DNA from: Thermoanaerobaculia bacterium
Lineage (GTDB): Bacteria > Acidobacteriota > Thermoanaerobaculia > Multivoradales > JAGPDF01
Assembly: GCA_031403995.1 (NCBI GenBank)
Contig: JANNGS010000057.1
Coordinates: forward strand, 12,173-76,172
Length of the DNA stretch: 64,000 nucleotides
Reading direction: 5' to 3'
In this document: piece by piece, positions 3,080 through 64,000 of the stretch
Position numbering within the stretch: position 1 is the stretch's first letter
Layout: each line of letters begins with the position of its first letter
Translations under genes and position numbers: made by a program
Notes under the pieces: model-generated
The model's input: only the letters and a program-made list of their open reading frames with translations
Told to the model about the DNA's origin: nothing
Database searches by the model: none

Positions 3080-3185
3080 GTTCGCGTTGTCTGGGGAAGC
3101 ACCCGCACGCAGGATCCGAGTCCGCCCACCCAGGCTAGCTGGTTTCGCGCTGTCGCACGGATGCTAGGCTCGTCCGGGCCTCGCC
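3080..3185 (+). promoter_or_regulatory. 5' leader/promoter region of the Ni/Co ECF-transporter operon. It may hold a metal- or B12-responsive element, but no riboswitch consensus was recognised by eye.
   Basis: A 106-nt non-coding gap lies directly upstream of cbiM. cbiM/nikM operons are usually controlled by B12 riboswitches or NikR; this element is inferred, not observed. Confidence 0.2.
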
Positions 3186-4286: not shown

Positions 4287-5167
4287 TGTCTCGCGAGCGA
4301 CCGAAGGCGACAGCGGCGGCGATCGCCTCGCCGGGTTTTCGCCTGGCCGGCAGGTCGCCGGTGGAACGAACGCTGGAGGAGCTGTTGCGGGTCGCCGAGC
4401 GCTCCCTGCACGCCGAAGAGACGGCGAGGCGCGGTGGACTTCTGCAGAAGCTCGACGCGCGCGCCAAGTGGATCGGCCTCGGCGGTCTCGTCCTGGCGGC
4501 GGGACTGGCGCGCAGCTTCGCGGTGCTCGGAGCGCTGTTCAGCCTCGCGCTGCTGCTCGCCCTGCTCTCTCGCCTGCGCTTGCGCGAGCTCGCACTGCGG
4601 GCCTGGTTGCCGGCGCTGCTCTTCACGGGGTTGGTCGCCGGCCCGGCGCTCTTTCTCACCCCGGGGCCGGCACTCGCCGGGTTCGCGGGTTTGCCCGAGG
4701 CGCTGGGGGTAAGTACCACCGGGGCGCGCGCTGTCGGCTTCCTCCTGCTGCGCGTCGAGGCGATCACCTCGTTCACGCTGCTCCTCGTGTTGACCACTCC
4801 GTGGGCGCGCCTGCTCGCGGCGCTGCGCGGCCTGCGCGTGCCGGCGACGGTGGTGGTCATCCTCGGCATGACCTATCGCTTCCTCTTTCTGCTTCTTTCG
4901 AGCACCCACGATCTCTTCCTCGCCCGGCGCAGCCGGTCGGTCGGCCGCCTCGCGCCGCGCGCGTCACGGCAGCTCTTCGCGCGTACGACCGGCGTTTTGC
5001 TCTCGCGAACCGTCGCCACCAGCCAGCAGGTCTACCTCGCGATGATCTCGCGCGGTTCCTCCGGCGACGTGCGGCTGCTCGATCCGCTGGCGATGCAGGG
5101 GCGGGATTGGGGCGCCGTCGCGACGAGTCTCGGGCTCGCTGCCGTGGCTATCTGGGTGGGTCGATGA
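4286..5167 (+). CDS. cbiQ: ECF transporter transmembrane (T) component CbiQ.
   Basis: The segment VLTTPWARLLAALRGLRVP...ILGMTYRFLF is typical of CbiQ/EcfT. Its ATG overlaps the cbiM stop (TGATG). The track ORF 4115..5167 is in the same frame. Confidence 0.75.
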   Translation: MSRERPKATAAAIASPGFRLAGRSPVERTLEELLRVAERSLHAEETARRGGLLQKLDARAKWIGLGGLVLAAGLARSFAVLGALFSLALLLALLSRLRLRELALRAWLPALLFTGLVAGPALFLTPGPALAGFAGLPEALGVSTTGARAVGFLLLRVEAITSFTLLLVLTTPWARLLAALRGLRVPATVVVILGMTYRFLFLLLSSTHDLFLARRSRSVGRLAPRASRQLFARTTGVLLSRTVATSQQVYLAMISRGSSGDVRLLDPLAMQGRDWGAVATSLGLAAVAIWVGR

Positions 5168-5985
5168 GCTCTGCACAGGTACCGCTCTACGAGCTGCGCG
5201 AGGTGAGCTATCGCTACGAGGAGATCGTCGCGATCGACGCCTGCTCGCTGACCATCGAGCGCGGCTCGCGTGTCGCGCTGCTCGGCGCCAACGGTTCAGG
5301 CAAGTCGACGCTGCTCATGCTGCTCGATGCCCTGCAGCCGCCGAGCGCGGGGTCGATCCACTTCGACGGCCGCGAGCTCTCGCCCGCGGCGCTGCTCGAC
5401 GAACGCGTGAACCACGACTTCCGGCGCCGTGTCGGTTTCGTCTTCCAGAACCCGGAGGTGCAGCTCTTCAATCCGACGGTGCGCGACGAGATTGCCTTCG
5501 CCCCGCTGCAGCTCGGCTGGCCGGCGGAGAAGATCCGCGACGAAGTGGAGCGGATGGTCGACCGGATGCAGCTGCGCCAGGTCGTCGAGCGCCCGACCTT
5601 CCGGCTCTCGATGGGCGAGAAGAAGCGGGTTGCGATCGCCTCTGTACTCATCCTCGACCCGGAGGTGATGCTCCTCGACGAGCCGACCGCCGGCCTCGAC
5701 CCGCGCAGCCAGAGCGGGGTCATCGACCTGCTCGAGGAGTGGCAGGGGAGCGGACGGACGGTAGTGCTGGCGACCCACGACCTCGGCGTGATCGAGGAGG
5801 TCGCCGACCGCTGCCTGGTCTTCCAGGAAGGCCGGCTGGTCGCCGACCACACCCCGAAAGAGACCGTCACCGACCTCGACCTTCTCGCCCGCACCGGCCT
5901 CGTCCACAGCCATCGGCATTCGCACCGCTCGGGTCTGCACCACGCGCATCCTCATCTCCACCGCCACGAGCACGGCGAGTCGTAG
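5164..5985 (+). CDS. cbiO: ECF transporter ATPase CbiO with a His-rich C-terminal tail (HSHRHSHRSGLHHAHPHLHRHEHGES).
   Basis: It has Walker A GANGSGKST, the ABC signature LSMGEKKRVAIA and Walker B LLDEPTAGLD. The ATGA overlap with cbiQ was seen in the sequence. Confidence 0.85.
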   Translation: MSSAQVPLYELREVSYRYEEIVAIDACSLTIERGSRVALLGANGSGKSTLLMLLDALQPPSAGSIHFDGRELSPAALLDERVNHDFRRRVGFVFQNPEVQLFNPTVRDEIAFAPLQLGWPAEKIRDEVERMVDRMQLRQVVERPTFRLSMGEKKRVAIASVLILDPEVMLLDEPTAGLDPRSQSGVIDLLEEWQGSGRTVVLATHDLGVIEEVADRCLVFQEGRLVADHTPKETVTDLDLLARTGLVHSHRHSHRSGLHHAHPHLHRHEHGES

Positions 5986-6008
5986 CCCGACAATAGGCGC
6001 GGCGGCAG

Positions 6009-9000
6009 TCAGCCCAGGCGCTCGAGCTCGGCGGCGAGGACGTCGACGTGTGGTGGCTCGAGCATTGAGAGATGGTCGCCCGGCACCGGCACAATCGCGA
6101 GCTCGCAGCCGGTTCGCCGCATGAACTCCGCATAGAGTCCGCCGGAACGCACGGTGGCGGCTAGAAAGGTCACCCTGCCGTCCCAGGCGCCGGGAAGGTA
6201 GCGCGCCAAGGCGGCTTCGTTGGCTCGCAAGACGCGGGTGAAGTGGCGGTATTCGTTCGCCTTGATCACCTCGTCGCGGCCATCCTTGAAGCGGCGAAGG
6301 CGGCGCCGCAGGCGCCCCAGGAGATCGCCCGCGGAGCGCCGCAGCCGGTCGTGAATCCACGCCCTTGCGGAGAGGGGCTCAGGGCGAACCCCGGGCAGGA
6401 CCTCGGCCAGCTCGGTGTCGAACATAGCGATCCAGGAGATTTCGTTGGGCCTCGCGAGGCGCGCCATCTCGTAGGCCACGACGCCTCCGAACGACATGCC
6501 GGCGATGCGGTAGGGCGGCGGGATCGGATGCGCCCGAACCTCCGCCAGAAGAATCTCCGCGAGCTCCTCGATCGTCTGCGGGATCGGTCGGTGGTCGTCG
6601 AGGCCCGGACTCTGAAGGCCGATGAGGAGGCGCCCGGGTGCAAGGATTCGCGCCAACGCGACCAGGCGGAGCAAGTGCCCACCGAGCCCGTGAACGCAGA
6701 AGATAACCGACGCCGCCCGCGCCGCCGGCGACGTCGGCGGGACGATCGTCACCAGGTTCGAGGCTTCTCCGAGACCAGACTCCGGCGCCATCTTGGAGCG
6801 CAATTCGGCCACGAGACCCGCGAGCGTCGGCGAGCGCAGGAGCTCGGCCACGCGGAGTGGAGCTCCGAACGCGGCTTCGATCCCGACGAGCAGCGAGACC
6901 GCGGCGAGAGAATCGCCGCCCGAAGCGAAGAAATCGGCGTCGCGAGAGATCGGCGTCACGTCGCCACGGCCGAGGGCGAGCTGCCAGATCTTCGCCAGCC
7001 GCTGTTCCAGAGGATCGCCGACCGACCCGAGCGCTTTCTCCCCGCACGCAGCCTCCGGCTTCGCGGGCGGAGGCGACGAGCTCTCACCCACCAGGCGATC
7101 GAAGTCGACCTTGCCGGCGAGGGTGAGTGGCAGGAAGGCGACGGCGAGGAGCGGGCTTGGGCGCAAGTACGCGGGCAGCCGCCGTTCGCACTCGCCCGCG
7201 ACCGCGGCGAGGTCTGCCCCGGTCGCGAGCACGACCCATCCGCTCAGGCGGAAGCCGCCCGCGGCCAGCGGTGCTGGCGCGACTGCGGCTGCGGAGACGC
7301 CGGCAATCGCGCGCAGCGTCGCCTCGACCTCTCCCGGCTCGACCCGTCGTCCAGCGATCTTGACTTGCCGATCGAGCCGGCCGAGAAACTCCAGCTCGCC
7401 GTCGCCGCGCCGGCGCACCCGGTCGCCGGTGGCATAGAAGCGATCAGAGCCACGACCTTGCTCGTCGCCGCCATCGCCGTCGGCGTTGCCGGAGGGGTCG
7501 AAGCGGGCGAATCGCGCCGCGGTCAGGTCGGGCCGCAGGTGATAGCCCCGCGCCAAGCCGCGGCCGCCGAGCCAGAGCTCCCCGGACTCGCCGGCAGCGA
7601 CTTGCCGGCGTTCGGTATCGAGGACGACGGCCCGCACTCCCTCGACCGGGTGCCCGATCGGCAGGCCGTTTCTCTCTGTGAGGTCGGAGGCGCGACGCGG
7701 CGCGTTCCACCATGTCGCCACGATCGTCGTTTCGGTCGGACCGTAGGTGTTGATGAGGCGCTTGCCGGCGGTGGCCTCGAGCCAGACGCGCGCGGCGCGC
7801 CCGCTCGCCAGCTCGCCGCCGAGAACCAGCAGGCGCAGGCTCGGCGGGAGCTCGAGGCCGTGAGCATCGACTTCCGTCGCGGCCTGCTCCCAGACCGCGG
7901 TCGGCAGGTCGAGGATGGTGACATCGAGCTCGCCGCAGCGCGCCAGGAGCTCGCGTGGCGCCGGCAGTGCAGGCTCGTCGAAGGCTACCAGCGTGGCGCC
8001 GTGGCAGAGCGCTCCGAAGATCTGTTCGAGGGCGAGATCGAACGCCGGCGAGGCAAGCTGAAGAATCCGGTCGCTGGGGGAAATCTCGAACTCGCGGCCC
8101 GCGGCTGCGATGTAGTGGGCGAACGCATGGTGCTCGACCGCGACTCCCTTGGGCGCGCCGGTCGAGCCCGAGGTCGCGGCGACGTAGGCGAGATCCCAAG
8201 GTTGCGCCGCCTGCCGCGGTTCGGCGCCGCTGCTCAAGGGCGAGTGCTCGCAGCCGTCCGCGAGACCGACCGGATGCATCGGAAGGTGCTGCAGAAGCGG
8301 CAGTAATGCAGCGGGGCGGTGCGGTGCGGATTCTCCGACTGCCAGCAGCGGGCGGTTCTCGGCGAGGATCCGAGCCACGCGATCCGGCGAGTCGAGGGCA
8401 TCGAGGACGAGAAAAGCGCCGCCGGCCTCGTGCACGGCGAGCATGGCCGTGACCAGATCGGGAAGGCGCCGGAGGCGCAGCGCCACTAGTCTCCCAGGCC
8501 CGACGCCGCGCCGCGCGAGGGCCGCAGCGAGGCGGCTCGCCCGCTCATTCAATTGCCGATAGCTCCAGCGCTCGTCACCCCACTCGACGGCGAGCGCGTC
8601 CGGCCTCCTTTCGGCGTGGGCCCGAAAGCGCTCGCCCACCGTGGGGATGCGTTCCGCAGGGAGGAGCGTCCCTGGCGTCGGACGACCGGCGACGTGCCTG
8701 CGGAGCCGGCGAGCGAAGCGGTGTGCAAAGTCTGTGAGGGAATCGCTCTCCGGAGGCAAGCGGGTGCGCAACGTCACCTTGCGGAGTCCGGGATCGACGG
8801 CGATCGTGAGGCGTATCGCACCTTCGGCAGGGAGGCCCGGGGGCGTCTCTCCGACGGTCAGCAGGTCGAGTGCCACGGCTGGACCGCATGGAAGACCGGA
8901 TCCGGTGGCGGCCGCCGTCAGCCGACGGCTGCGCAGGGGGAGATCCGTCGGGAACGTGCCGCGTGTCCGCAGGCGCGTGCGCTGTTCAGTCAAGTCGCGC

Positions 9001-48277: not shown

Positions 48278-51200
48278 TTGGGGGAAGCCATTTTGACAGG
48301 TTCTGCCTGCCTCAAACAATGCTCTCTATGGTTGGGCCGGGTGGCGCTTTTCCTGTTGGCTGTAGCGGCAGGGGCAGATCAGCTCTGGTTGGTGTCGCGG
48401 GGCCTGCCCAGCGACACGCCGGCGGGATGGTCGCAGCCGCACACGATGACTCCGGACGGACGCTACGTCCTCATGAGCTCGGCGGCCACGGGTTGGGTGA
48501 GCGGCATCGTGGACTCGAACGGCGGCCCGGACGTCTACCTGTGGGACCGGGATACGGGCGAGCACACCCTCGTCTCGCACACCGTCGGGGATCCGGCGAC
48601 GGCGGCGAACGACGAGTCGTTTCCCGGTTCGATCAGCGACGACGGCCGATTCGTGACCTTCAGCTCCTACGGTTCGGACCTGGTCGACGGCGCAACCGAC
48701 ATCAACTTCGTCGCCGACGTCTTTCTCTGGGACGGCGCCACCGGCTCGATCCAGCTCGTCTCGCACATGGGGGTCGCCGTAGCGATGACCGCGAACGAGC
48801 GCTCGACGCCGAACGCCATGAGCGCCGACGGCCGCTACGTCGTCTTCCAGTCCGTGGCCGACGATCTCGTCGCTGGCGGAGTCGACGACAACCAGACCTG
48901 GGACGTTTTCGTCTGGGACCGCGACACCTCCGAGGTGGTCCTGGTCTCGCACGATGCGGTCGATCCGGCGAGCGCGGCAGATGGACTGTCCGAGCCTGCC
49001 GCGATGAGCACCGACGGGCGCTACATCGCCTTCACTTCGTCGGCGACCAATCTGGTCGCCGGGACCACCGATGCCAATGCCGTCGAGGACGCCTTCGTCT
49101 GGGATCGGGTCGCGGGCGCTTCGACCCTGGTCTCGCACGCGGCGCCCTCGGCGACGACGGCGGCGAACAACTTCTCCGTCGCCCGGGCCATCAGTGCCGA
49201 CGGCCGCTATGTCGCTTACGACTCCAACGCCACCAACCTGATCACCGGCTGGTCGGGCTCGGCCGCCAACGTCTTTCTCTGGGATCGCGACACCGGCGGA
49301 GCGACCCTGGTCTCCCATCGCGCGACCGGTCTCGCCGCGGGAGCCGGCGGCTCCGAGCTCGGCGCGCTCAGTCCGGACGGCCAGAGCGTCGCCTTCGTGT
49401 CGAAGGCGGAAACGCTCATCGCCGGCGGCAGCGACGCCAATGCGGAGGACGACACCTTTCACTGGCGGGCCGACAGCGGCGCGGTGGCGCTGGTTTCCCA
49501 CACGGCTTCGTCGACGACCACGGCGGGAGATCGCGCGGCGCTGCCGGTGGCGATCAGCGCCGACGGTCAGTTCGTGCTCTATCGCTCGGCGTCGAGCGAT
49601 CACATCGCCGGGGGGAGCGACGCGAACGGCGTCGAAGACGCCTTTTTCTGGGACCGCGACAGCGGCGCGATCGAGCTCGTCTCGCGAACTCCTGCCAGCG
49701 CGACGACTCCGGGCGGCGCGGCTTCGACGCCGCGCGCGATGAGCGCCGACGGGCTGTGGGTCGCCCTCGCCTCCAAAGCCAGCGACCTGCTCTCGGGAGG
49801 CGTGGACGGCAACGGTGCCCAGGACGCCTTTCTCTGGGACCGCACGAGCGGCGCCCACAGTTTGATCTCAAGCGCCACTGTGGCGGAGGTAACCGGCGCG
49901 AACGGCCTGGTCAGCCCGCTGGCGCTGAGCTCCGATGGGCGGTTCGTCCTGTTCAGCTCGGAGGCGACCAATCTGCTGGCCGGTGGGACCGCAACCAGCG
50001 ACCTCTGGGACCTTCTGCAGTGGGATCGCACGACCGAAGCCTTGACCCTGGTCGCCCACGTCGCCGGCGAGCGGCCGACCGCGACGAACGAGGCCGGCAG
50101 CATGAGCTCCGACGGCCGCTACGTGGCGTTCTACTCCTTCGCCGCCGACCTGATCGCCGGCGGCAGCGATGCCAACGGCGAGGCCGACGCTTTTCTCTGG
50201 GATCAGACGAGCGGGCTGCGGATCCTCATTTCCGGCGCAGCCGGTTCGGGCACGGTGGCGGCGAACGGGCGCTCGATCCCGGCGGCGATGAGCCTGGACG
50301 GCCGCTACGTGACGTTCTGGTCGCTCTCCACCGACCTCGACGCGGGCCTAACCGACCTCAACGATGCCAGGGACGTCTTCCAATGGGATCGTGACACCGG
50401 CGTCGTGACCCTGATCTCGCACGTCGGCGGACAACCGCAGGTCGCGGCGGACTCCGAATCCGTTCCTACGGCGACGAGCGCCGACGGCCGTTACGTCGCT
50501 TTCTACTCGCAGGCGATGAGCCTGGTCGACGTCGCCAACGATCTCAACGGCACCGTCGAGGACGCCTTCCTTTGGGACCGCATCACCGGTGCGGTCACCC
50601 TCGTCTCGCACATTCCCGGGGCCCCGACGACCACCGGAAACGGCAAGTCGATACCTCTCGGGGTGAGCGCCGACGGCGAGTTCGTCGCCTTTGCCTCCAA
50701 ATCGAGCGACCTGATCGTCGGCAACGACGACGGGAACGGGCAGTTCGACCTTTTCCTCTGGGCGCGATCGAGCGGCGCGGTGACCCTCATCTCGCACTCC
50801 ACCATCGCGTCGACGAGCACCGGCGACGAGTTCAGTGCCTTCAAGGCGCTTTCCGCCGACGGCAATTTCGTCGCCTTCGTGTCGGCGGCGACCGACCTGA
50901 TCGTCGGGGGCATCGACTCCAACGGGCCGGGCGCCGACGCTTATCTGTGGAGTCGCCTGACTGGGGAGGTGCAACTGATCGCGCACGCCCCTGGCGATCC
51001 GGCGGCGACGGCGAACGGTGCCTCCGAGCCCGTGTCGTTGAGCGCCGATGGCCGCTATGTCGTGTTCTCGTCTTCCGCTTCCGACCTGGTCGCGGGTGCG
51101 CTCGACACCAACGAGCTCGCCGACGTCTACCTCTGGGATCGGTTGAGCGACAGCTCGATCCTGGCGTCGCACACGCTGGATGACGCGACCGTTTCGGCGT

Positions 51201-52984
51201 TCGGTCCCTCGACGGCGCGGGCGATGAGCGCGAACGGGAGCTACGTCCTGTTCTCTTCCGCCGCCCGGGACCTCGCGCCGGCAAACACCTCTGCGATCCA
51301 GGTCTACCTCTGGTCGGCCAACACCCTGGACGCGACTCCTCCGCTCAATCCGGCGATTGACTCGACGCTGCCACCGGTGTCGATCTGGTCGAACAGCCCT
51401 TGGGTCGAGATCAGCTGGTCGGGGGCGAGCGACGAGCTCGGCGGCTCGGGGATGCACGGCTATTCGACGCTCTGGGACACCTCAGCGGACACGGTTCCGG
51501 ACGCGGTCGTCGATGAACCGCACGCCACGGACCCCAATTCGGTGACCAGCCCGCCGCTCACCGACGGCGACTCGCACTACTTCCATCTCTCGACTTGCGA
51601 CTCGGCCGGCAACTGCGCTGCGACCGTGCATGCCGGACCGTTCTGGGTGGACACCACGCCGCCCGCTGCAGCCACCGCGCTGGCGAGCTCCAGTCATGCG
51701 GTGGGCGTGCCGTCGAACGACCCGACCGTCGACGTCCAATGGCAGGCGGCGCTCGACCAGGCCGGACTCTCCGGCATCGACGGTTACGCGGTGGAGTTCG
51801 AGGCGAACAGCGGCTGGACCTGTGACGAGGTGCTGGACCTCGAGGAGGGCACACTCTCGACGACGAGCCCGGTGCTCGCCGACGGCGAGTGGTACTTCCA
51901 CCTCTGCGCGCGCGACAACGCCGGCAACTGGGGGCCGGTGGCGTCGCTCGGGCCGTTCGTGATCGAGACCCTGCCGCCGGGCGCGGCCTCCGGGCTCGCG
52001 AGCTCGAGTCACGCGGTGGGCGTGCTGTCGAACGACCCGACCGTCGACGTCTCCTGGCAGGCGGCTCCCGACCTCGAGGTTCCCTCCGGCATCGATGGCT
52101 ACGCGATCCAGTTCGATGGGAACAGCAGTTGGACCTGCGATGAGGTCAAGGACGTCGAGGAGGACACGCTCGCGGCGACGAGCCCGGCGCTCGCCGACGG
52201 CGACAGGTACTTCCACCTCTGCGCGCGCGACAACGCCGGCAACTGGGGGCCGGTGGCGTCGCTCGGGCCGTTCGTGATCGACGCCTCACCGCCGGGCGCG
52301 GCCTCCGCACTCGCGAGCTCGAGTCACTCAGTGGGCGTGCCGTCGAACGACCCGACGGTCGACGTCTCCTGGCAGGCGGCTCCCGACCAGGCGGGTCCCT
52401 CCGGCATCGACGGCTACGCGCTTCAGTTCGATGCGAACAGCAGCTGGACCTGTGACGAGGTGCTGGACGTCGAGGAGGGCACACTCGCAACGACGAGCCC
52501 GGTGCTCGCCGACGGCGACGGGTACTTCCACCTCTGCGCGCGCGACAACGCCGGCAACTGGGGGCCGGTGGCGTCGCTCGGCCCGTTCTTGATCGACGCC
52601 TCCCCGCCGGGCGCGGCCTCCGGGCTCGCGAGCTCGAGCCACGTGGTGGGCGTGCCGTCGAACGACCCGACGGTCGACGTTCAATGGCAGGCGGCTCCCG
52701 ACCAGGCGGAGTCCTCCGGCATCGACGGCTACGCGCTGCAGTTCGATGCGAACAGCGGCTGGGCCTGCGACGAAGTGCAGGACGTCGAGGAGGTCACGCT
52801 CGCGGCGACGAGCCCGGCGCTCGCCGACGGCGACTGGTATTTCCACCTCTGCGCGCGCGACAACGCCGGCAACTGGGGACCGGTAGCGTCGATCGGGCCG
52901 TTCGTGATCGAAATCTCCGCGACCGTTTTCATCGACGGGTTCGAGCTCGGCGATATGTCGCGATGGTCCAGCAATGTGCCTTGA
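48278..52984 (+). CDS. Giant secreted protein (about 1570 aa). It has a signal peptide, about 19 tandem PD40/TolB-like beta-propeller repeats (...SxDGRYVaF.S.A.dLvaG.tD.N...DVFLWDR.TG...LVSH), one diverged and four near-identical roughly 105-aa Fn3/Ig-like modules, and a terminal DGFELGDMSRWSSNVP motif.
   Basis: The repeat architecture was read directly from the translation. The start is approximate; TTG at 48278 or 48293 gives ...CLKQCSLWLGRVALFLLAVAAGADQ. Confidence 0.8.
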   Translation: MGEAILTGSACLKQCSLWLGRVALFLLAVAAGADQLWLVSRGLPSDTPAGWSQPHTMTPDGRYVLMSSAATGWVSGIVDSNGGPDVYLWDRDTGEHTLVSHTVGDPATAANDESFPGSISDDGRFVTFSSYGSDLVDGATDINFVADVFLWDGATGSIQLVSHMGVAVAMTANERSTPNAMSADGRYVVFQSVADDLVAGGVDDNQTWDVFVWDRDTSEVVLVSHDAVDPASAADGLSEPAAMSTDGRYIAFTSSATNLVAGTTDANAVEDAFVWDRVAGASTLVSHAAPSATTAANNFSVARAISADGRYVAYDSNATNLITGWSGSAANVFLWDRDTGGATLVSHRATGLAAGAGGSELGALSPDGQSVAFVSKAETLIAGGSDANAEDDTFHWRADSGAVALVSHTASSTTTAGDRAALPVAISADGQFVLYRSASSDHIAGGSDANGVEDAFFWDRDSGAIELVSRTPASATTPGGAASTPRAMSADGLWVALASKASDLLSGGVDGNGAQDAFLWDRTSGAHSLISSATVAEVTGANGLVSPLALSSDGRFVLFSSEATNLLAGGTATSDLWDLLQWDRTTEALTLVAHVAGERPTATNEAGSMSSDGRYVAFYSFAADLIAGGSDANGEADAFLWDQTSGLRILISGAAGSGTVAANGRSIPAAMSLDGRYVTFWSLSTDLDAGLTDLNDARDVFQWDRDTGVVTLISHVGGQPQVAADSESVPTATSADGRYVAFYSQAMSLVDVANDLNGTVEDAFLWDRITGAVTLVSHIPGAPTTTGNGKSIPLGVSADGEFVAFASKSSDLIVGNDDGNGQFDLFLWARSSGAVTLISHSTIASTSTGDEFSAFKALSADGNFVAFVSAATDLIVGGIDSNGPGADAYLWSRLTGEVQLIAHAPGDPAATANGASEPVSLSADGRYVVFSSSASDLVAGALDTNELADVYLWDRLSDSSILASHTLDDATVSAFGPSTARAMSANGSYVLFSSAARDLAPANTSAIQVYLWSANTLDATPPLNPAIDSTLPPVSIWSNSPWVEISWSGASDELGGSGMHGYSTLWDTSADTVPDAVVDEPHATDPNSVTSPPLTDGDSHYFHLSTCDSAGNCAATVHAGPFWVDTTPPAAATALASSSHAVGVPSNDPTVDVQWQAALDQAGLSGIDGYAVEFEANSGWTCDEVLDLEEGTLSTTSPVLADGEWYFHLCARDNAGNWGPVASLGPFVIETLPPGAASGLASSSHAVGVLSNDPTVDVSWQAAPDLEVPSGIDGYAIQFDGNSSWTCDEVKDVEEDTLAATSPALADGDRYFHLCARDNAGNWGPVASLGPFVIDASPPGAASALASSSHSVGVPSNDPTVDVSWQAAPDQAGPSGIDGYALQFDANSSWTCDEVLDVEEGTLATTSPVLADGDGYFHLCARDNAGNWGPVASLGPFLIDASPPGAASGLASSSHVVGVPSNDPTVDVQWQAAPDQAESSGIDGYALQFDANSGWACDEVQDVEEVTLAATSPALADGDWYFHLCARDNAGNWGPVASIGPFVIEISATVFIDGFELGDMSRWSSNVP
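51653..52915 (+). repeat. Four tandem, nearly identical 315-bp DNA repeats (units starting near 51653, 51969, 52284 and 52593) that encode the Fn3/Ig-like modules, plus one older diverged copy near 51340-51652.
   Basis: Long identical strings recur every 315 bp, for example gacaacgccggcaactgggggccggtggcgtcgctcgggccgttcgtgatcga and tcgaacgacccgac.gtcgacgtc. They produce a stack of phantom overlapping ORFs in the track (51595..52490). Confidence 0.85.
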
Positions 52985-53924: not shown

Positions 53925-55094
53925 GTGAACGTGGAGCTCTTCTCGATGGTAGCCCTCCTTCTGGGGTGTCTGCCGTGGGCAGAAGCGGCCTCGCCGCCGA
54001 CTCCGGTCGCGCCGGCGAGGGCGACGGGGGCGGCGCTCCTTGCCAGCCGTTTGCCGCGGGTGGAGTATCGCGGCGGGCTGTTCCTCAGGAAGATCCGCGT
54101 CGTTACCATCACCTTCGCTGGCGACGATCCGGCGCTCGTGGCGCGGCTCGAGCGCTTCGGCGACACGATCGTCCGCTCGCCCTGGTGGCGGGACTCGGTC
54201 GAGGGGTATTGCGCGACCGCGGGCGACTGCATCGGCGCGGGCCGCCCGGGGCTTGCGGTCCGCCTGGACGAGCAGCTGCCCTCGCGGGTCCATGGCGTCG
54301 ACATCTCGGCCCTCCTGCGCCGCGAAGCGCGCGCCGGACGCTTCGGGGCGTACGATCCGGAGAGCGTCTACGTCGTCTATCTGCCCGCCGGAGTCACCCT
54401 GTTCGACGCCTACCAGGAGCATTACTGCGCCGGCGGGCCGCGCGCCTTTCACCGCGCGCTGCGCGACGGCGAGCGGTTGAACGGCTTCTCGGTCATCCCG
54501 CGCTGCGGCGACGAGAGCGAGCTCACCGGGACCGCGAGCCACGAGCTCGTCGAGCTCGCGACCAACCCCGACACACAACAGCGGGGCTTCGCCTTCGAGC
54601 AGAGCTCGAACCAGCTGGCTTTCCTCGCCGCGGGCGTCGAGCCGATGGATCCCTGTGGACTCCTCACCCGGGATAGCCACCGCCTGCAGGAGAGCGGTTT
54701 CACGGTGCAGGGGGCGTGGTCCAACCGCGCCGCCGCGCTGGGACAGGATCCGTGCGCGCCGCTTCCCGCGCCCCAGGCCTATGTGGCGGGCATCCCGCGC
54801 GCGCCTTCGCTGCGGCTGCGACAGGTCGGCGACCGCGCCACCGTCGTCCTGGACGCGACCGCGGACCGCCCGGGCGTCGAATGGCAGCTGTCGGTCGTCG
54901 ACCTGAGCGGCGAGCAGGAGGGCGTGCGCTATGTGGAAGCGGCGCTCGAGAAGTCGACGGTGACCGCCGGCGAGTCCGTCACGCTCACGCTCGAGCTGCG
55001 CCGGCGCCACCCGCAGGAGACGGTCGTCGTGGCCATACTTTCGACCCTCGGCGACCAGACCCGGATGTGGCCGCTGGCGGTGAACACGCGCTGA
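53925..55094 (+). CDS. Secreted hypothetical protein (389 aa) with several Cys pairs and an HELVELATNPD motif.
   Basis: It has the signal peptide MNVELFSMVALLLGCLPWAEA and protein-like composition. The opposite-strand ORF 53475..55265 is junk. Confidence 0.55.
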   Translation: MNVELFSMVALLLGCLPWAEAASPPTPVAPARATGAALLASRLPRVEYRGGLFLRKIRVVTITFAGDDPALVARLERFGDTIVRSPWWRDSVEGYCATAGDCIGAGRPGLAVRLDEQLPSRVHGVDISALLRREARAGRFGAYDPESVYVVYLPAGVTLFDAYQEHYCAGGPRAFHRALRDGERLNGFSVIPRCGDESELTGTASHELVELATNPDTQQRGFAFEQSSNQLAFLAAGVEPMDPCGLLTRDSHRLQESGFTVQGAWSNRAAALGQDPCAPLPAPQAYVAGIPRAPSLRLRQVGDRATVVLDATADRPGVEWQLSVVDLSGEQEGVRYVEAALEKSTVTAGESVTLTLELRRRHPQETVVVAILSTLGDQTRMWPLAVNTR

Positions 55095-55239
55095 AATCGG
55101 CCTTCTGCGCCGAGAGCGCTCGAGGGATTCGGCATGATCCTCGGAGTCGCCTCCGTCCGACCGGTTCCAGAAGGGGCCGGAAGTGTCACCGCCGCGCGAC
55201 TGACTTCGAAACCACCCCTCGCGTAGCCTCCAGACCGGG

Positions 55240-57042
55240 ATGTCGATCCGGCTGGAACAGCTCACGAAGCGCTACGACGGCCGCGCAGTCGTCTCCAACG
55301 TCTCCTTCGAAGTCGCCACAGGCGAGCTCTGCGTGCTCCTCGGCCCATCGGGGAGCGGCAAGAGCACGATCCTGCGGCTCGTCGCCGGTCTCGCTCCCTG
55401 TGACGGCGGGCGGATCCTGCTCGACGGGCAGGACCTCGCCCCGGTGCCGGCGCGCGAGCGCGGGCTCGGCTTCGTATTCCAGAGTTACGCCCTCTTTCGC
55501 CACCTGACGGTCTCGGAGAACGTCGAGTTCGCGCTGCGGGTGCGCGGCGACTCTGCGCCGTCGCGTCGGCAGCGCCGCGAGGAGCTCCTGGAGCTCGTCG
55601 GCCTTGCCGGGCTGGGGCAGCGTTTTCCGGCACAGCTCTCGGGCGGCCAGCAGCAGCGCGTCGCCCTGGCGCGGGCGCTGGCGCATCGCCCGCGGGTGCT
55701 GCTGCTCGACGAACCCTTCGGGGCCCTCGATGCCCGCATCCGGCTGGAGCTGCGCCGCTCGCTGTCGCGGATCCAGCGCGAGCTCGCGGTGACGACGCTC
55801 TTCGTCACCCACGACCAGGAGGAGGCCTTCGAGCTCGCCGATCGACTGGCGGTGATGTCCCAGGGCCGGCTCATCGAGGACGGTCCGCCGCGCGAGCTCT
55901 ACCTGCGCCCGCAGACCGAGTTCGCGGCGACTTTCCTCGGCGGCGCCAACCTCCTGGTCGGCAGGAGCGACGAGCACGGCATCCGTTTCGGTGCCGTCGA
56001 AGTGCCGCTCAAGGGGGGGATCGCGGCGGAGGGGCTGGAGCGGCGTGTCCAGCTCCTCGTGCGCCCAGAAGACGTCGAGCTCGTGGCCCCCGGCGAAGAG
56101 CTCGCTTCGACACCGCTCGGCGAAGGTCTGGTCGAAGAAGTAGCGTTCGTTGGCGCGCAAGAGCGCCTGCGCCTGAAGCTCCCGACGCCTCCCGGAGTGC
56201 GGGTGATCCATCCGCCGCGCCGTTTCGGAGATCCCGACCTGCCGGTCGAGGCGGTGCGCTCGCAGCATGACGCTCGCCGGCTCACACTCCTTCCCGGGGA
56301 TCGCGTTCGGGTCGGCATCCGTCGTTTTCACGTTCTGCTGCATCCCGGACTCTCGTTGCTCCTCGCCGAGAGCGCCGGTCCGGCGGGGGAGGCGGCGCTG
56401 CACGCTGCAACGGAGATTGCGCGGCTCGCGCAGGCGCGCTTGCAGCGCAGCAGCCTCGAAGCGACCTTCGCTGGCCGCGGCTCGGACGAGGGCGTCGAGC
56501 ATCCCGACCTGCTGGTGGTGGGGGCGCGCGCCGGAGCGGTTGCGGCTTCCTCGGAGAAGCTGCTCGCGGCGACCTCGGCGAACCTCTTGCTGGTGCGCGG
56601 CGCGACGCCGATGCCGCCCACCCGCTTCCTGATCGCGGTCGCGGTCGGCGAGCCGGGCAAGGAGGACGTCGCTTTCGCCGGCCGTCTGGCGCGCCACCTG
56701 GGCGCTTCGGCGACGGTCCTCTCGGTCCTCGCTCCGGATGCCGCAGAGAGCGAGCAGCGCGCCGCAGAGCGCTTTCTCGCCGCTTGCGTGCGCACGCTCG
56801 CGGCGCTCGGCGTGCCGGCAGAGATCGATGTGAGGCGCGGCGAGCTCCGTGCTGTCCTCGGCGGGCGAATCGACGAGGCGCGCGACCTTCTCGTTCTGGG
56901 CGCGCCGCCTCCAGACGACGAAGGTCGCTACTCCTGGGGGCGGACGCTGCGCGGTCTGCTCGATGCAGGTGGGTCGGTGCCCATTCTCGTCGTGCGCGCG
57001 GCGCGCGGCCAGGGCCTCGAGCCGGCGGGGGACGTGGAATGA
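55240..57042 (+). CDS. cysA: Sulfate/thiosulfate ABC importer ATPase CysA fused to a TOBE-like domain and two tandem universal-stress-protein (UspA) domains.
   Basis: The ABC domain has [24 protein letters not shown] and [11 protein letters not shown]. The C-terminal 250 aa show USP-like beta-alpha units ([10 protein letters not shown]...[10 protein letters not shown]...LLLVRG, and [12 protein letters not shown]...DLLVLGAPP...VPILVVRA). Confidence 0.75.
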
Positions 57043-57076
57043 GGTTCGAGAAACCGATCCGAGGAGAGGGAAATTC

Positions 57077-58087
57077 ATGAGACCCGCGAGAGCGCCGTTT
57101 GCGTCCGGTTTCGCTGTAGCGCTGGTCGGACTGTTGGCGACGACATCCCTTGCTGCCGCCGAGTCAATCACCCTGCTGAACGTCTCGTACGACCCGACCC
57201 GCGAGCTCTATGGTGAGGTCAACAGGGCCTTTGCCGCGCAGTGGAAGAGCCACACCGGGCAGGAGGTCACCCTCCAGCAGTCGCACGGCGGCTCCGGCAA
57301 GCAGGCGCGGTCGGTGATCGACGGCCTCGAAGCGGACGTCGTTACCCTGGCGCTTGCCGGGGACATCGATGCCATCGCGCGGACCGGCCTCCTGCCCTCG
57401 ACCTGGCAGCAGCGCCTGCCACACAACAGCACCCCGTACACCTCGACGATCGTCTTCCTGGTGCGCAAGGGCAATCCGAAGGCGATCCGCGACTGGGACG
57501 ACCTCGGCAAGGCCGGCGTCTCGGTCATCACGCCGAATCCGAAGACTTCGGGCGGCGCGCGCTGGAACTACCTCGCGGCCTGGGGCGCGGTACTGAAGCG
57601 CGGCGGCGACGAGGCGCAGGCGCGCGACCTCGTCGCACGCATCTTCCGCAACGTGCCGGTGCTCGACACCGGCGCCCGGGGCTCGACCGTGACCTTTGTC
57701 GAGCGCGGCATCGGCGACGTTCTGCTGGCCTGGGAGAACGAGGCCCTGCTCTCTCTGAAGGAGTTCGGAGCCGACAAGTTCGAGATCATCGCGCCGAAGT
57801 ACTCGATCCTCGCCGAGCCGCCGGTGGCGGTGGTCGACAAAGTCGCCGACCGACGGGGAACGCGCAAGGTCGCCGACGCTTATCTCGAGTTCCTCTACTC
57901 GGCGGTGGGCCAGGTCCTCGCGGCGAAGCACTTCTATCGTCCGCGTGATCCGGCGGCGCTCACGACAGCGAAGGTTCAGTTCCCGGTGATCGAGATGTTC
58001 ACCATCGACGAGCTGTTCGGGGGCTGGAAGGCGGCGCAGGAGAAGCACTTCGCCGAGGGCGGCGAGTTCGACCGGTTGCCGCGATGA
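57077..58087 (+). CDS. sbp: Sulfate/thiosulfate ABC transporter periplasmic binding protein (Sbp/CysP).
   Basis: It has a signal peptide. The Sbp-family motifs [58 protein letters not shown] and LLAWENEA are present. GAGGAGAGGG lies upstream of the ATG at 57077. Confidence 0.85.
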
Positions 58088-58103
58088 GCGCTCTCCCGGT
58101 CGG

Positions 58104-58964
58104 ATGAGGGAGCGGCGGGATCGCGGGCCGCTGCCCGGCTTCGGTCTGGCCGGCGGGACGACGCTGCTCTACCTGGGGCTGCTCGTCCTGCTGCCGCTCG
58201 CGGCGCTGGTGTGGAAGGCGACGGAGCTCTCGTGGGCCGACTTCGTGCGTCTCGTCGCCTCCGACCGCGCGCTCGCCTCCTATCGCCTGACGTTCGGCGC
58301 CGCCGCCGCGGCGGCGCTGGTGAATCTCGTCTTCGGCAGCATCGCGGCCTGGGTTCTCGAGCGCTACCGCTTCCCGGGACGGCGGTTGGTGGATGCGCTC
58401 ATCGACCTGCCGTTCGCGCTGCCGACGGCGGTGGCGGGGATCGCCCTTGCCGCGGCCTTCGCGCCGAACGGCTGGATCGGCAGCAGGATCGAACCGCTCG
58501 GCCTCAAAGTCGCCTACACACCGCTCGGGATCGGCGTGGCGCTCACGTTCATCGGACTGCCGTTTGTCGTGCGCACGCTGCAGCCGGTGCTGCGCAGCCT
58601 CGAGCCGGCGCTCGAAGAGGCCGCGGCCTCCCTTGGCGCGACACGGATGCAGACGATCCGCCGGGTCGTCCTGCCCGAAATCGTGCCCGCAGCGGCCACC
58701 GGCTTCGTTCTCGCCCTGGCGCGCGGCCTGGGAGAGTATGGTTCGGTCATCTTCATCGCCGGCAATCTGCCGATGAAATCCGAGATCACCGCGCTGCTGA
58801 TCATGGTCCGACTCGAGGAGTACGACTACGCCGGCGCCACGGCGATCGCCTCGGTCTTCCTGGCTGCGTCGTTCCTGCTCCTGCTGCTGCTCAATCGGCT
58901 CTCGGCAAGGCGCCGGCCGGCAGCGGAGACGGCTCGCGAGCGGCGCGAAAGAGGTGCGAAGTGA
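58104..58964 (+). CDS. cysT: Sulfate ABC transporter permease CysT.
   Basis: The CysT N-terminus is LPGFGLAGGTTLLYLGLLVLLPL, and the EAA loop is EEAAASLGATRMQTIRRVVLPE. Confidence 0.85.
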   Translation: MRERRDRGPLPGFGLAGGTTLLYLGLLVLLPLAALVWKATELSWADFVRLVASDRALASYRLTFGAAAAAALVNLVFGSIAAWVLERYRFPGRRLVDALIDLPFALPTAVAGIALAAAFAPNGWIGSRIEPLGLKVAYTPLGIGVALTFIGLPFVVRTLQPVLRSLEPALEEAAASLGATRMQTIRRVVLPEIVPAAATGFVLALARGLGEYGSVIFIAGNLPMKSEITALLIMVRLEEYDYAGATAIASVFLAASFLLLLLLNRLSARRRPAAETARERRERGAK

Positions 58965-59800
58965 GAGTGCGTTTCGAGGATCCCCGCGCCGACCCGGTCT
59001 GGCTGCGGATCTTCCTGATCGCACTCACGGTCGGATTCCTCGCCCTCTTCCTGGTGGTTCCGCTCACCGTCGTCTTCGCGCAGGCCTTCTCCAAGGGTTG
59101 GGCGGTCTACTTGGCAGCCGTCCGCGACCCGGTCGCCTTGCAGGCGGTGCGACTGACCCTGCTGGTCGCCGTCATCGTGGTACCGATCAACACGATCTTC
59201 GGGCTCGCCGCGGCATGGTGGCTGGCGAACTTCCGCTTCCGCGGCAAGGGTCTGGTGGTGACGCTCCTCGATCTGCCGTTTTCGGTCTCTCCCGTCGTCG
59301 CCGGGATGCTTTTCGTTCTGGTCTTCGGAGCGCAAGGGCTGCTCGGTCCCTGGCTCGCCGAACACGGCATCCGGATCCTGTTCGCGCTGCCAGGAATTGT
59401 CCTGGCGACGCTCTTCGTGACTTCGCCGTTCGTCGCGCGCCAGCTCCTGCCGCTGCTCGAAGCGCGTGGCAGCGCCGAGGAAGAGGCGGCGCTCACCCTG
59501 GGCGCCTCGGGATGGCAGCTCTTCCGCTGGATCACGCTGCCCAAGGTCGTCTGGGGACTGCTCTACGGCGTGATTCTCACCAACGCCAGGGCGATGGGGG
59601 AGTTCGGCGCGGTCTCCGTGGTCTCGGGGCATATCCGCGGGCGCACCAACACGATTCCCCTGCACGTCGAGATCCTCTACAACGAATACCAGTTCGCCGC
59701 CGCCTTCGCGGTGGCCTCGCTCCTCACCCTTCTCGCTCTCGTCACCCTGCTCGCTCAGGCCCTCCTGCGCCGCAAGGTCAGTGGCGGCTCCGTGCACTAG
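58961..59800 (+). CDS. cysW: Sulfate ABC transporter permease CysW.
   Basis: The GTG start overlaps the cysT stop (GTGA). The EAA loop is EEEAALTLGASGWQLFRWITLP, and the SGHIRGRTNTIPLHVE tail is typical of CysW. Confidence 0.85.
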   Translation: MRVRFEDPRADPVWLRIFLIALTVGFLALFLVVPLTVVFAQAFSKGWAVYLAAVRDPVALQAVRLTLLVAVIVVPINTIFGLAAAWWLANFRFRGKGLVVTLLDLPFSVSPVVAGMLFVLVFGAQGLLGPWLAEHGIRILFALPGIVLATLFVTSPFVARQLLPLLEARGSAEEEAALTLGASGWQLFRWITLPKVVWGLLYGVILTNARAMGEFGAVSVVSGHIRGRTNTIPLHVEILYNEYQFAAAFAVASLLTLLALVTLLAQALLRRKVSGGSVH

Positions 59801-61630
59801 GTGCGTTGCGGTAACCTCCACTCCATGCGGCCCTGGAGCTTTCGCGGCCTGCTCATCGTGCTGACGGTCGGCCTCGTGCTCGCGACCGTGGTCGCGCTCG
59901 AGCTTTCCACCTATGCGCAGCTTCGCCGGCTGAGCCGGGAGGAGGCGCGGGCGCGAGCAGCGAGAGAAGTGGCGCGGATCCTCGAGCGCTTCGAAGCCAC
60001 GGTCCTGCCCCTGACGCCAGCGCCGCCGGTCTCGCGTGCGGCCCTGCAAGCGGAGATCGCGCAGTGGAGCTCGACCTCCACGCGCTACCCGTTGGCCGCG
60101 CGACTCGTGCTGCCGCAGGAGGTCGAAAGCCGCTTTGCGGAGGAGCGCGCCGGTCTCTGGCGGGAGGCCCTTGCCGGAGCGGCCGTGGACGCCTTCCTGT
60201 CCGAGAGCGGCGACGCTCAGGCGGCGGCGCCGCTGCGCGGCGCGGACGGCGAGGTCATGGGGGTCGTCGAGGCGGCGATCCCGTCCGCGGAGGTGCACCA
60301 GCCGGTGAGGCGATTCCTGGCGCGCACCGTCCGTACCGCTGCGATCGTCGTCGGGCTGGCGCTCCTGCTCTCGGTCGTTTTCGGCAGAGAGCTGGCGCGG
60401 CCGCTCGCCGAGCTGGCGCGGCGCGCCACGGCGATGGGAGAGGGCGACCTCCGATCGCCGCTGCCCGTCGAGGGCGGACGCGAGGTTCGTGCGCTCGCCG
60501 CCAGTCTCGACCAGATGCGACGGGGGCGAGCCGCCGCCGAAGGCGAGCTCGGTCGCAAGCGCGACGAGCTTGCGGCCGTGCTCGGCGGGATCGCCGAAGG
60601 GGTTTACGCGGTCGATCGCGACCGGCGGGTGCTCTACCTCAACCCGCCGGCGGCGAAGCTGCTCGGTATCGCCGCGGACAAGGCGGTCGGGCAGTTCTGC
60701 GGCGACCTGCTGCAGCCGCGCAGCGAGAACGGTGTGCGGCCTTGCGACGAGCGCTGTCCGATCCTCGACGCCCGTTTTCGCGGCCCGACCCAGGTCGTCG
60801 AGCGCATCGGGCGGCGCAAGGACGCGACCGGTGATCGGGCGGTCGTGTTGCGCAGCTCGCCCCCCTCGGCGGGCATCCAGGTGCAGGTGATGCGCGACGA
60901 GACTGCGGTCGAAGCGGCTCACCGGGCGCGCGACCTCGTGGTCGCCGACCTGGCGCACGAGCTCAAGACGCCGCTCGCCGCCCAGGCGGCGGCGCTCGAG
61001 CTGCTGCGCGAGCGGCTCGGCGAATCGGACCCAGAGCTCGCGGGGCTCGCCGCCAGCGCCGAGGTGGGCACGATGCGCCTGCGCCGCCTGATCGAGAATC
61101 TCCTCGAGAGCATTCGGATCGAGTCCGGCCAACTCGCCATTCGCAAGCTCCAGATCGAGCTCGACGAGCTCGTCGAAGAGGCTTCGGAGATGACGCGCCC
61201 GCTGCTCGGCCAACGGCGCCAGGAGCTCGAGACGGAGCTGCCCTATCCGCTGCCGGCGCTCCACGGAGATCCGCAGCGCCTCGTCCAGGTCCTGGTGAAT
61301 CTACTTTCGAACGCCTCGAAGTTCGCTCCCGCGGGCACGACGATCCGGATCTCCGGCGAGATCGACGTGCCTCTCGTGCGGATCCGGGTGGAGGACGAGG
61401 GACCGGGCTTTCCCGAGACGGCGGAGCCCGGACGCACCGGACGCTTCGAGCGCTGGGCGCCGACCGAGCCGGCGGAGGCCGGCAGCGGACTCGGCCTCTG
61501 GATCTCGCGTTCGATCGTCGAGCGCCATGGCGGTGCGATGACGTTTGCGCGCCGCGGAAAGTGGACCACTGTCGCGGTGGAGCTGCCGATCGACCTGCCG
61601 CAGGAGATGCCGGCGGAGGTCTCGGGATGA
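59801..61630 (+). CDS. Sensor histidine kinase (TM, HAMP, PAS-like, HisKA, HATPase_c).
   Basis: The H-box is [20 protein letters not shown], and the N/G-boxes are [11 protein letters not shown] and [18 protein letters not shown]. The start is uncertain: GTG at 59801 abuts the cysW stop, and an ATG lies at 59825. Confidence 0.75.
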
Positions 61631-62307
61631 AGATCCTGGTGGTCGACGACGACCACGAGCTGCGCTCGATCGTCGGCTTCGCGCTGCGGCAGGGGGGCTT
61701 CCTGGCGCTAGAGGCCGGTGACGGCGGGGCAGCTCTGGCCGCGGTCGAGGCAGAGCAGCCGGCGCTCATCGTGCTCGATCTCAATCTTCCCGGTCGCGAC
61801 GGGTTGGCGCTCCTGCCCGAGCTGCGGGCGCGCACCGCTTCCCCGGTTCTGGTCCTCTCGGTGCGCTCGGCCGAGGAGGACGTCGTGCGCGCGCTCGACC
61901 TCGGCGCCGACGACTACCTGACGAAGCCGTTCAGCCCGCGAACCCTGCTGGCGCGGATTCGCGCGCTCCTCAGGCGCTCCGGCGTCGAGCGCCCGGAGCC
62001 GCTCGTCGCCGGCGATCTGGCGCTCGATCTCGAGCGCCGCACGGCGCGCATCGGCGGCGCCGCGCCGGTGCATCTCACCCCGCTCGAGCTCCGGCTCCTG
62101 CACCTCCTGGTGGCCTCGGCGGGCGAGACCGTCGCCATCGAGCGCCTGCTGGTCCACATCTGGGGCGCGCGCGGCGCCGGCGAGCGCCAGCTCCTCAAGC
62201 AGTTGGTGCACCGGCTGCGACAGAAGATCGAACCCGAACCGGCAGCACCGCGCTACATCGTCACCGTCTCCGGCGAGGGCTACCGCTTCGCTCCCCAGCC
62301 CCGCTGA
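61627..62307 (+). CDS. OmpR-family response regulator, partner of the preceding kinase.
   Basis: It begins MKILVVDDD, with the receiver Asp in [13 protein letters not shown]. The OmpR winged-helix C-terminus ends [12 protein letters not shown]. The ATGA overlap with the kinase gene was seen. Confidence 0.85.
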
Positions 62308-62432
62308 GCCGCGCCCCTGAGCCGGGGCCACTGCGCCTGCGCCGGACCGGGCGAGGCTTGGCCGGGCCGCGGCCGGCGTGAGAGACTTCGCCCCGTCTTC
62401 TCCTACAGGAACAGCCAGCGAGGGAGGCCCGA

Positions 62433-64000
<1,568 letters not shown>

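Follow-up and report, generated by a model that had tools for sequence, protein, structure and literature searches.

A sulfate-type ABC importer ATPase with a tandem universal-stress-protein tail in Thermoanaerobaculia: a candidate regulatory module built into the transporter

A 64,000-nt stretch of DNA from a Thermoanaerobaculia bacterium (phylum Acidobacteriota; contig JANNGS010000057.1, positions 12,173 to 76,172 of the forward strand; hereafter the window) contains a group of six genes whose first member, here termed cysA-USP, encodes the ATPase subunit of an importer of the ATP-binding cassette (ABC) type, apparently specific for sulfate or a related anion, that is extended at its C-terminus by two domains resembling universal stress proteins (USPs). 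The genes that follow encode a periplasmic sulfate-binding protein (Sbp), the two permease subunits CysT and CysW, a sensor histidine kinase as well as a response regulator (Table 1). All six are packed with overlaps or short gaps: 34 nt separate cysA-USP from sbp and 16 nt separate sbp from cysT, the GTG start of cysW lies on the cysT stop codon with a 4-nt overlap, the kinase gene begins 24 nt past cysW, and the ATG of the regulator gene overlaps the kinase stop codon by 4 nt.

Table 1. Genes and protein domains of the cysA-USP locus, in window coordinates (ORF, open reading frame; TM, transmembrane segment).
Feature	Position	Strand	Evidence
cysA-USP: sulfate ABC importer ATPase subunit with tandem USP tail	55240..57042	+	stop-free single ORF, 600 aa
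ABC nucleotide-binding domain, residues 1-240	55240..55959	+	Pfam ABC_tran at residues 19-160, E 1.7e-35
TOBE-like regulatory beta-barrel, residues ~241-368	55960..56343	+	Pfam TOBE_2 at residues 272-330, E 3.7e-5
USP1: shortened USP-like domain, four strands, residues 372-456	56353..56607	+	alignment, AlphaFold 2 model, TTHA0350 N-terminal domain
USP2: complete USP fold, five strands and four helices, residues 460-587	56617..57000	+	Foldseek, profile, column counts
sbp: periplasmic sulfate-binding protein	57077..58087	+	NF008022 498 bits (cut-off 288), TIGR00971 468 bits
sbp start	ATG 57077	+	GGAGAGGG precedes ATG
cysT: permease subunit	58104..58964	+	TIGR02139 377.5 bits (cut-off 246)
cysW: permease subunit	58961..59800	+	TIGR02140 378.8 bits (cut-off 329)
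Sensor histidine kinase: TM, periplasmic domain, TM, HAMP, PAS, HisKA, HATPase	59825..61630	+	Pfam
OmpR-family response regulator	61627..62307	+	Pfam Response_reg and Trans_reg_C

The N-terminal part of CysA-USP is that of an ABC transporter ATPase (PF00005), with the signature LSGGQQQR, the Walker B stretch LLLDEPF and the H-loop THDQ. In an alignment of 56 full-length family members, which underlies all conservation statements on the ATPase and its tail, the Walker A residues G35-S-G-S-G-K41 as well as L133-S-G-G-Q, L154-L-L-D-E158 and H191 are invariant, so that the pump should, judging by its motifs, be active. The barrel region appears in the full-length AlphaFold 2 model (pLDDT 84, pTM 0.72; all structural models are of the monomer) as an all-beta segment from residue 237 to 367 and ends in an invariant H-P-G-L junction that is joined directly to USP1. 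Foldseek searches superposed this barrel on the C-terminal domain of the solved CysA 1Z47, which was also the top PDB match to the full-length model (E 1.4e-35, 38% identity, TM-score 0.88 on the target); CysA-USP thus has the CysA fold, an ATP-binding domain plus a C-terminal barrel. The match spans only ~367 columns of the model, and none of its Foldseek PDB matches was a solved ABC ATPase structure reaching over the tail.

At the sequence level, the ATPase stays below the NCBIfam cut-offs for CysA (TIGR00968, 300.4 bits with a cut-off of 342.75; NF008105, 292.4 bits with a cut-off of 502), and its top NCBIfam model, PhnT2, reaches 337.4 bits with a cut-off of 457.7. The substrate is therefore not fixed by the ATPase sequence alone, and we assigned a sulfate-type substrate because the downstream sbp, cysT and cysW exceed their NCBIfam cut-offs. 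Co-encoding of CysA-USP with Sbp, CysT and CysW is kept in related loci. A model-made first-pass annotation of the window had described the gene order cysA-sbp-cysT-cysW as non-canonical; order and coordinates were correct, but the adjective was too strong, as this is simply the conserved order of the family. We dropped gene order as a feature of interest, since it does not vary within the family and the usual order occurs in a sister subfamily (see below).

Analysis of the tail showed that it is related to tandem USPs, i.e., proteins with two USP folds in one chain. A profile of the tail family matched, among PDB sequences, both domains of TTHA0350 (E 3.6e-6, with an alignment covering residues 1-266) and MJ0577 (E 7e-5). 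In line with this, an AlphaFold model of the tail (pLDDT 84, pTM 0.79) had as its best PDB matches in Foldseek the tandem USPs TTHA0350, Rv2623, PA1789 and UspE, each with a probability of 1.0 and aligned over both domains (~255-300 columns, TM-score 0.54-0.61), followed by single USPs, TeaD, the USP domain of KdpD and the USP-like C-terminal domains of KCC/NKCC cotransporters. A family member from another locus (L041) passes Pfam Usp with 40.6 bits, and most of the 89 database proteins that match the 281-residue tail carry a precomputed PF00582 assignment. Both domains belong to the USP fold, USP2 with the full fold and USP1 with four strands, and in the models the tail is a tandem USP of the established type, packed as an intramolecular pseudo-dimer. 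The presence of UspA-like domains behind the TOBE domain, as first annotated, is thus borne out by the profile, by the structural comparison and by Pfam-positive homologues. Their extent had been given as residues 330-600; the actual span is ~372-587, and residues 330-368 are still part of the TOBE-like barrel.

Tail matches of 260-290 aa were considered as stand-alone ancestors of the tail and rejected: most of them, being truncated gene calls, start inside the junction between barrel and USP1. The genuine stand-alone tandem USPs, P0325 and P0335, are only distantly related and have canonical motifs.

We also considered an artefact, namely that an ordinary cysA and an independent usp gene were fused by a frameshift, an overlooked stop codon or a chimeric assembly. 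A few long-read assemblies do show the gene split (L001/L010 in OY969426.1 and L002/L020 in CAWENH010000001.1, both metagenome-assembled genomes (MAGs)). In L001/L010 the neighbouring sbp and cysT/cysW genes are also fragmented, indicating sequencing errors, and the splits appear to stem from indels left uncorrected in the assembly and not to be genuine. The window ORF itself is unbroken, and an identical 600-aa protein stands on an NCBI record (P0090) from a 126-kb contig. Among the 80 best related genome loci, 75 encode ABC, TOBE and USP domains in one stop-free ORF with the same gene order; the five exceptions comprise three genes split in assembly (L010, L020 and L042) and two continuous ORFs without a separate USP2 or USP match. 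Moreover, more than 100 of the 120 best-scoring clusters listed (90% identity) are full-length fusions of 585-675 aa, and the invariant H-P-G-L sequence links barrel and USP1 without a gap. A frameshift or missed stop codon is excluded for the window gene, and we give the artefact explanation practically no credence.

Conservation analysis showed that several hundred uncultured bacteria from soil and water share the fusion. A profile search of 1.84 billion representatives returned 97 clusters (50% identity) at E<=1e-30 and 571 at E<=1e-10, and in full-length matches the tail always starts near residue 370. In a scan of one genome per species, the tail was encoded by 262 species, most of them Acidobacteriota (mostly Thermoanaerobaculia, also Polarisedimenticolia and Holophagales) and Chloroflexota (Anaerolineae, Caldilineales, Roseiflexaceae, Herpetosiphonaceae, Kouleothrix and Ca. 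Amarolinea), with single records from Gemmatimonadales, Eisenbacteria and Cryosericum. Nearly all carriers listed are MAGs. The nearest match to the window itself, with a tail 96% identical, is likewise a Thermoanaerobaculia MAG (L003).

USP-tailed ATPases also occur in a sister subfamily, represented by P0315 (L163, positions 2454-6334), a 643-aa protein with Pfam CysA_C_terminal and Usp. It belongs to a sulfate-like system of three genes in the order sbp-permease-ATPase, with a single permease gene. The binding protein of this system is below the sulfate cut-offs and its substrate is uncertain, and no two-component genes were found on the 9-kb contig.

USP2 has a strongly conserved signature of its own. 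About 15 of its residues, many of them charged, are invariant across phyla. They include, at the usual ligand site of the fold, the block V-G470-E-P-G-K474-x-D476-V-x-F479-x-G-R482-L-x-R485-H486-L-G488 (hereafter GEPGK..R..RH) and, further downstream, G554-x-P556, G562-R563 and R586. USP2 also shares an "LGAP" element with the C-terminal domain of TTHA0350 in the profile alignment.

Taken together, these data are best explained by a sulfate (or thiosulfate) importer ATPase whose tandem USP tail would act as a transporter-intrinsic regulatory module that tunes uptake, a reading inferred from sequence and models, to which we assign a probability of about one half. Tandem USPs are described as forming four-domain dimers of tandems (PMC3673472), and the same stoichiometry would be expected beneath an ABC ATPase dimer: with two ATPase subunits per importer, four USP domains would lie below the membrane. 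A cytoplasmic signal would then shift the association of the two tails and thereby favour or impede the closing of the paired ATP-binding domains, so that sulfate uptake is tuned. The most probable signal would be a small molecule bound in the pocket of USP2, which is strongly conserved (GEPGK...R..RH); it might be an adenine nucleotide, as is usual for the USP fold, or, as an attractive guess, an anionic sulfur metabolite such as adenosine phosphosulfate (APS) or phosphoadenosine phosphosulfate (PAPS). Such a mechanism would have parallels in the trans-inhibition of ModBC and MetNI by their C-terminal domains and in the regulation of other transporters by USP proteins.

Several observations weigh against this interpretation. 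The canonical USP ATP motif, G-x2-G-x9-G-(S/T), is present in neither USP1 nor USP2. At the corresponding position of USP2 the alignment shows an invariant first Gly (G554) and an invariant P556; Leu or Pro replaces the second Gly, roughly half of the sequences have the third, and no Ser/Thr is conserved at the end of the motif. Likewise, the Asp after strand 1, which is the usual ribose contact, is the invariant Gly G470, and USP2 does not fall into the ATP-binding USP subclass of the MJ0577 type. Pfam Usp gave only 12.8 bits on the window protein (E 0.17, cut-off 24), restricted to residues ~477-522, and no match to USP1. In the window's clade USP1 has ~37 alignment columns fewer than in the wider family. 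Finally, the tails of two metagenome loci (L087, positions 1046-2884, and L088, positions 3019-5091), which form a related subfamily of similar length, lack the GEPGK..R..RH motif, indicating that a common ligand pocket is not universal; this would suit a role chiefly in protein-protein contacts.

Part of these points can be qualified. The motif of the TTHA0350 C-terminal domain is described as "completely degenerated", and ATP is still bound (PMC3673472), so that nucleotide binding is compatible with a degenerate motif. The Pfam failure follows the shortening of USP1: proteins of the window's clade (585-610 aa) are mostly without a Pfam Usp match because of the missing ~37 columns, and their 615-657-aa relatives mostly have one. 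Thus, of the domain scan suggested in the first-pass annotation, ABC_tran and TOBE were recovered and Usp remained below threshold. The interpretation given there holds in part: a tandem USP does follow the regulatory barrel, in the place of the accessory domains of other importers, but the canonical ATP motif is missing and nucleotide gating is a hypothesis.

The same features would suit a ligand-free structural domain, a degenerate USP pair that stabilises the ATPase dimer or the complex and senses nothing: neither domain has an intact ATP motif, the window's clade has lost part of USP1, and Pfam Usp is below threshold. We regard a purely structural role as improbable, because some 15 invariant residues in USP2, many charged and placed at the usual ligand site, amount to more conservation than a passive spacer needs; retention of the tail in 262 species is a further point against it.

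Besides the importer genes, the window operon includes the histidine kinase and response regulator, neither of which reaches any NCBIfam equivalog. The first-pass annotation had overlooked this pair, although it is relevant to the mechanism. An alignment of 15 kinases showed that the PAS domain carries three invariant cysteines in the motif FCG-x13-PC-x3-CP, which starts at nt 60695 of the window. Every orthologue examined has this motif and no generic kinase among those fetched does, which suggests that sulfate-transporter operons have a dedicated sensor based on a metal, an Fe-S cluster or thiols. In 44 of the 60 loci with enough flanking sequence, the kinase motif was found downstream of cysW, and kinase and regulator orthologues occupy this place in Acidobacteriota, Chloroflexota and Eisenbacteria. 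Identity to the window proteins in the wider family is 44-57% for the kinase and 59-80% for the regulator, with higher values in the closest relatives (up to 94% for the regulator). The remaining 16 loci, mostly from Chloroflexota, are without the motif, and some of them have a different two-component pair upstream.

The association also holds in the reverse direction. Starting from the kinase, we found 14 clear orthologues (42-52% identity) on metagenome contigs, nine of which have enough flank, and all nine adjoin cysT/cysW or sbp; the others are on short or uninformative contigs. Wherever cysA was covered (L085-L089), it had a tail of ~230 aa. In kinases of at most 35% identity, both the cysteine motif and the sulfate-transporter context are missing, and a kinase without a tailed CysA was never seen in the available loci. 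Two further observations concern the kinase genes and their surroundings. In the window's clade the periplasmic sensor region of the kinase is more than 100 columns shorter than in the wider family, parallel to the shortening of USP1 (~37 columns). At six loci (L087, L084, L089, L090, L092 and L093), the sbp gene is found on the opposite strand, downstream of the regulator gene.

This linkage could mean that the USP tail is a signalling adaptor, which reports transporter activity or occupancy to the co-encoded kinase, so that the importer serves as a co-sensor for the regulator. Contact would probably be made with the cytoplasmic cysteine-bearing PAS domain of the kinase, resembling PstB-PhoU-PhoR in the sensing of phosphate or the scaffolding of KdpD by its USP domain. 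The tight packing of the six genes, the conserved place of kinase and regulator behind cysW across phyla and the sulfate-transporter context of the kinase orthologues with enough flank all speak for it, and L087 and L088, which keep the cysteine-bearing kinase with a GEPGK-less tail, are compatible with a protein-protein role. However, 16 of the 60 informative loci have the tail but not the kinase, and the sister subfamily is tailed with no two-component system on its contig, which speaks for a basic role of the tail at the transporter itself. The kinase could also sense independently through its own periplasmic domain and cysteine-bearing PAS, and the genes may be neighbours simply because the regulator controls the operon's transcription. 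We therefore prefer an intrinsic module of the transporter to a kinase adaptor on account of the kinase-free loci and the sister subfamily, and consider the adaptor less likely; it is still a serious rival, given that the kinase was never seen apart from a tailed CysA in the available loci, and it is the more novel of the two readings. The two functions are not mutually exclusive. A more speculative and somewhat less probable combination is that all six genes form one sulfur-status circuit typical of Acidobacteriota and Chloroflexota, in which the USP tail and the three-cysteine PAS act together and the transporter is both effector and co-sensor; the PAS of the kinase might then be a metal, Fe-S or thiol/persulfide sensor.

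Searches for regulatory elements around the operon gave no candidates. An Rfam scan of the leader and cysA-USP detected no riboswitch, its sole match being a chance sub-threshold CRISPR-repeat hit, and a promoter and terminator scan of positions 54800-62700 found no promoter-like site and terminator-like sites only at chance level, although such a scan says little for an organism of 70% G+C. Directly upstream of cysA-USP, a 389-aa ORF (53925-55094, plus strand) has a signal-peptide-like N-terminus and no Pfam match. Further upstream, a 1568-aa ORF (48278-52984, plus strand) contains many ~55-residue repeats (DGRYVAF.S.A.NLV.GD.N...DVF.WD), followed by a ~100-residue module in four copies near its C-terminus and looks like a large secreted repeat protein. 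An insert of gene size between cysA-USP and sbp, which the window does not have, is found in 26 of 73 related loci; in L006 (7843-9201) it encodes an anion-selective outer-membrane porin (Pfam Porin_O_P, E 2.8e-34), and the insert of L041 (8270-9688) is similar in sequence.

No study of an ABC ATPase with a USP tail was found in the literature searched, in agreement with the first-pass annotation, which knew of no characterised CysA-USP fusion. Automated database labels of some members read "sulfate transport system ATP-binding protein" or "ATPase subunit/nucleotide-binding universal stress UspA", so that the architecture is already visible in databases. To our knowledge, control of sulfate uptake is understood almost only at the transcriptional level and in few model bacteria, and we know of no description of classical LysR-type CysB control in the carrier lineages. 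Accessory domains on ABC ATPases (TOBE, ACT-like, CBS) are a known route to fast post-translational control; if regulatory, the USP pair would extend this set by a new kind of control domain, and USP domains, mostly of obscure biochemical role, would gain a defined target. Carriers are common among abundant uncultured lineages of soil and wastewater (Thermoanaerobaculia, Anaerolineae, Caldilineales and filamentous Chloroflexota), and the family may shape sulfur acquisition in these communities. The greatest potential lies in the possible link between the importer and the cysteine-bearing kinase: the kinase makes a concrete candidate for a sulfur sensor of the two-component type in bacteria, and the six-gene circuit, if true, would give sulfate a two-component system comparable to Pho.

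CysA-USP shares the ATP-binding domain and the C-terminal beta-barrel with CysA of Escherichia coli and of Alicyclobacillus acidocaldarius (1Z47). Known CysA proteins end past the barrel at ~345-365 aa, whereas the window protein continues for ~230 residues, and its gene is first rather than last in the operon. The accessory domains of other importers, i.e., the trans-inhibition domains of ModC and MetN and the CBS domains of OpuA, are likewise cytoplasmic and C-terminal, present in two copies per complex, and control transport through their association. Their folds differ from that of the tail, and only the domain position is analogous.

With TTHA0350, Rv2623, UspE and PA1789 the tail shares two USP folds per chain in a pseudo-dimer. 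Degeneration of one half is also known from these proteins, as the first domain of PA1789 and the second motif of TTHA0350, which has the "LGAP" element, are degenerate. In contrast to these free-standing proteins, the pair in the window is fused to an ABC ATPase, its USP1 is shortened, and USP2 has GEPGK..R..RH instead of the ATP motif. USP-fold proteins with a genetic or physical link to transporters are represented by TeaD, which modulates the TeaABC TRAP transporter but is a separate polypeptide with an intact ATP motif. The USP-like C-terminal domains of KCC/NKCC, which also regulate transport, match the tail structurally and belong to a different transporter class. Rv2623 is reported to regulate the ABC transporter Rv1747 (PMC5549992), a precedent for a tandem USP acting on a transporter of this type; here too, the USP is a separate polypeptide with intact ATP motifs, and Rv1747 is an exporter contacted through an FHA domain, unlike the importer ATPase to which the window tail is fused. 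The USP domain of KdpD, which is reported to bind cyclic di-AMP in Staphylococcus aureus (PMC4686210), links the state of ion transport to two-component signalling. In KdpD the USP domain resides in the kinase; at the cysA-USP locus it is carried by the transporter ATPase, and in its stead the kinase contains a PAS domain with cysteines.

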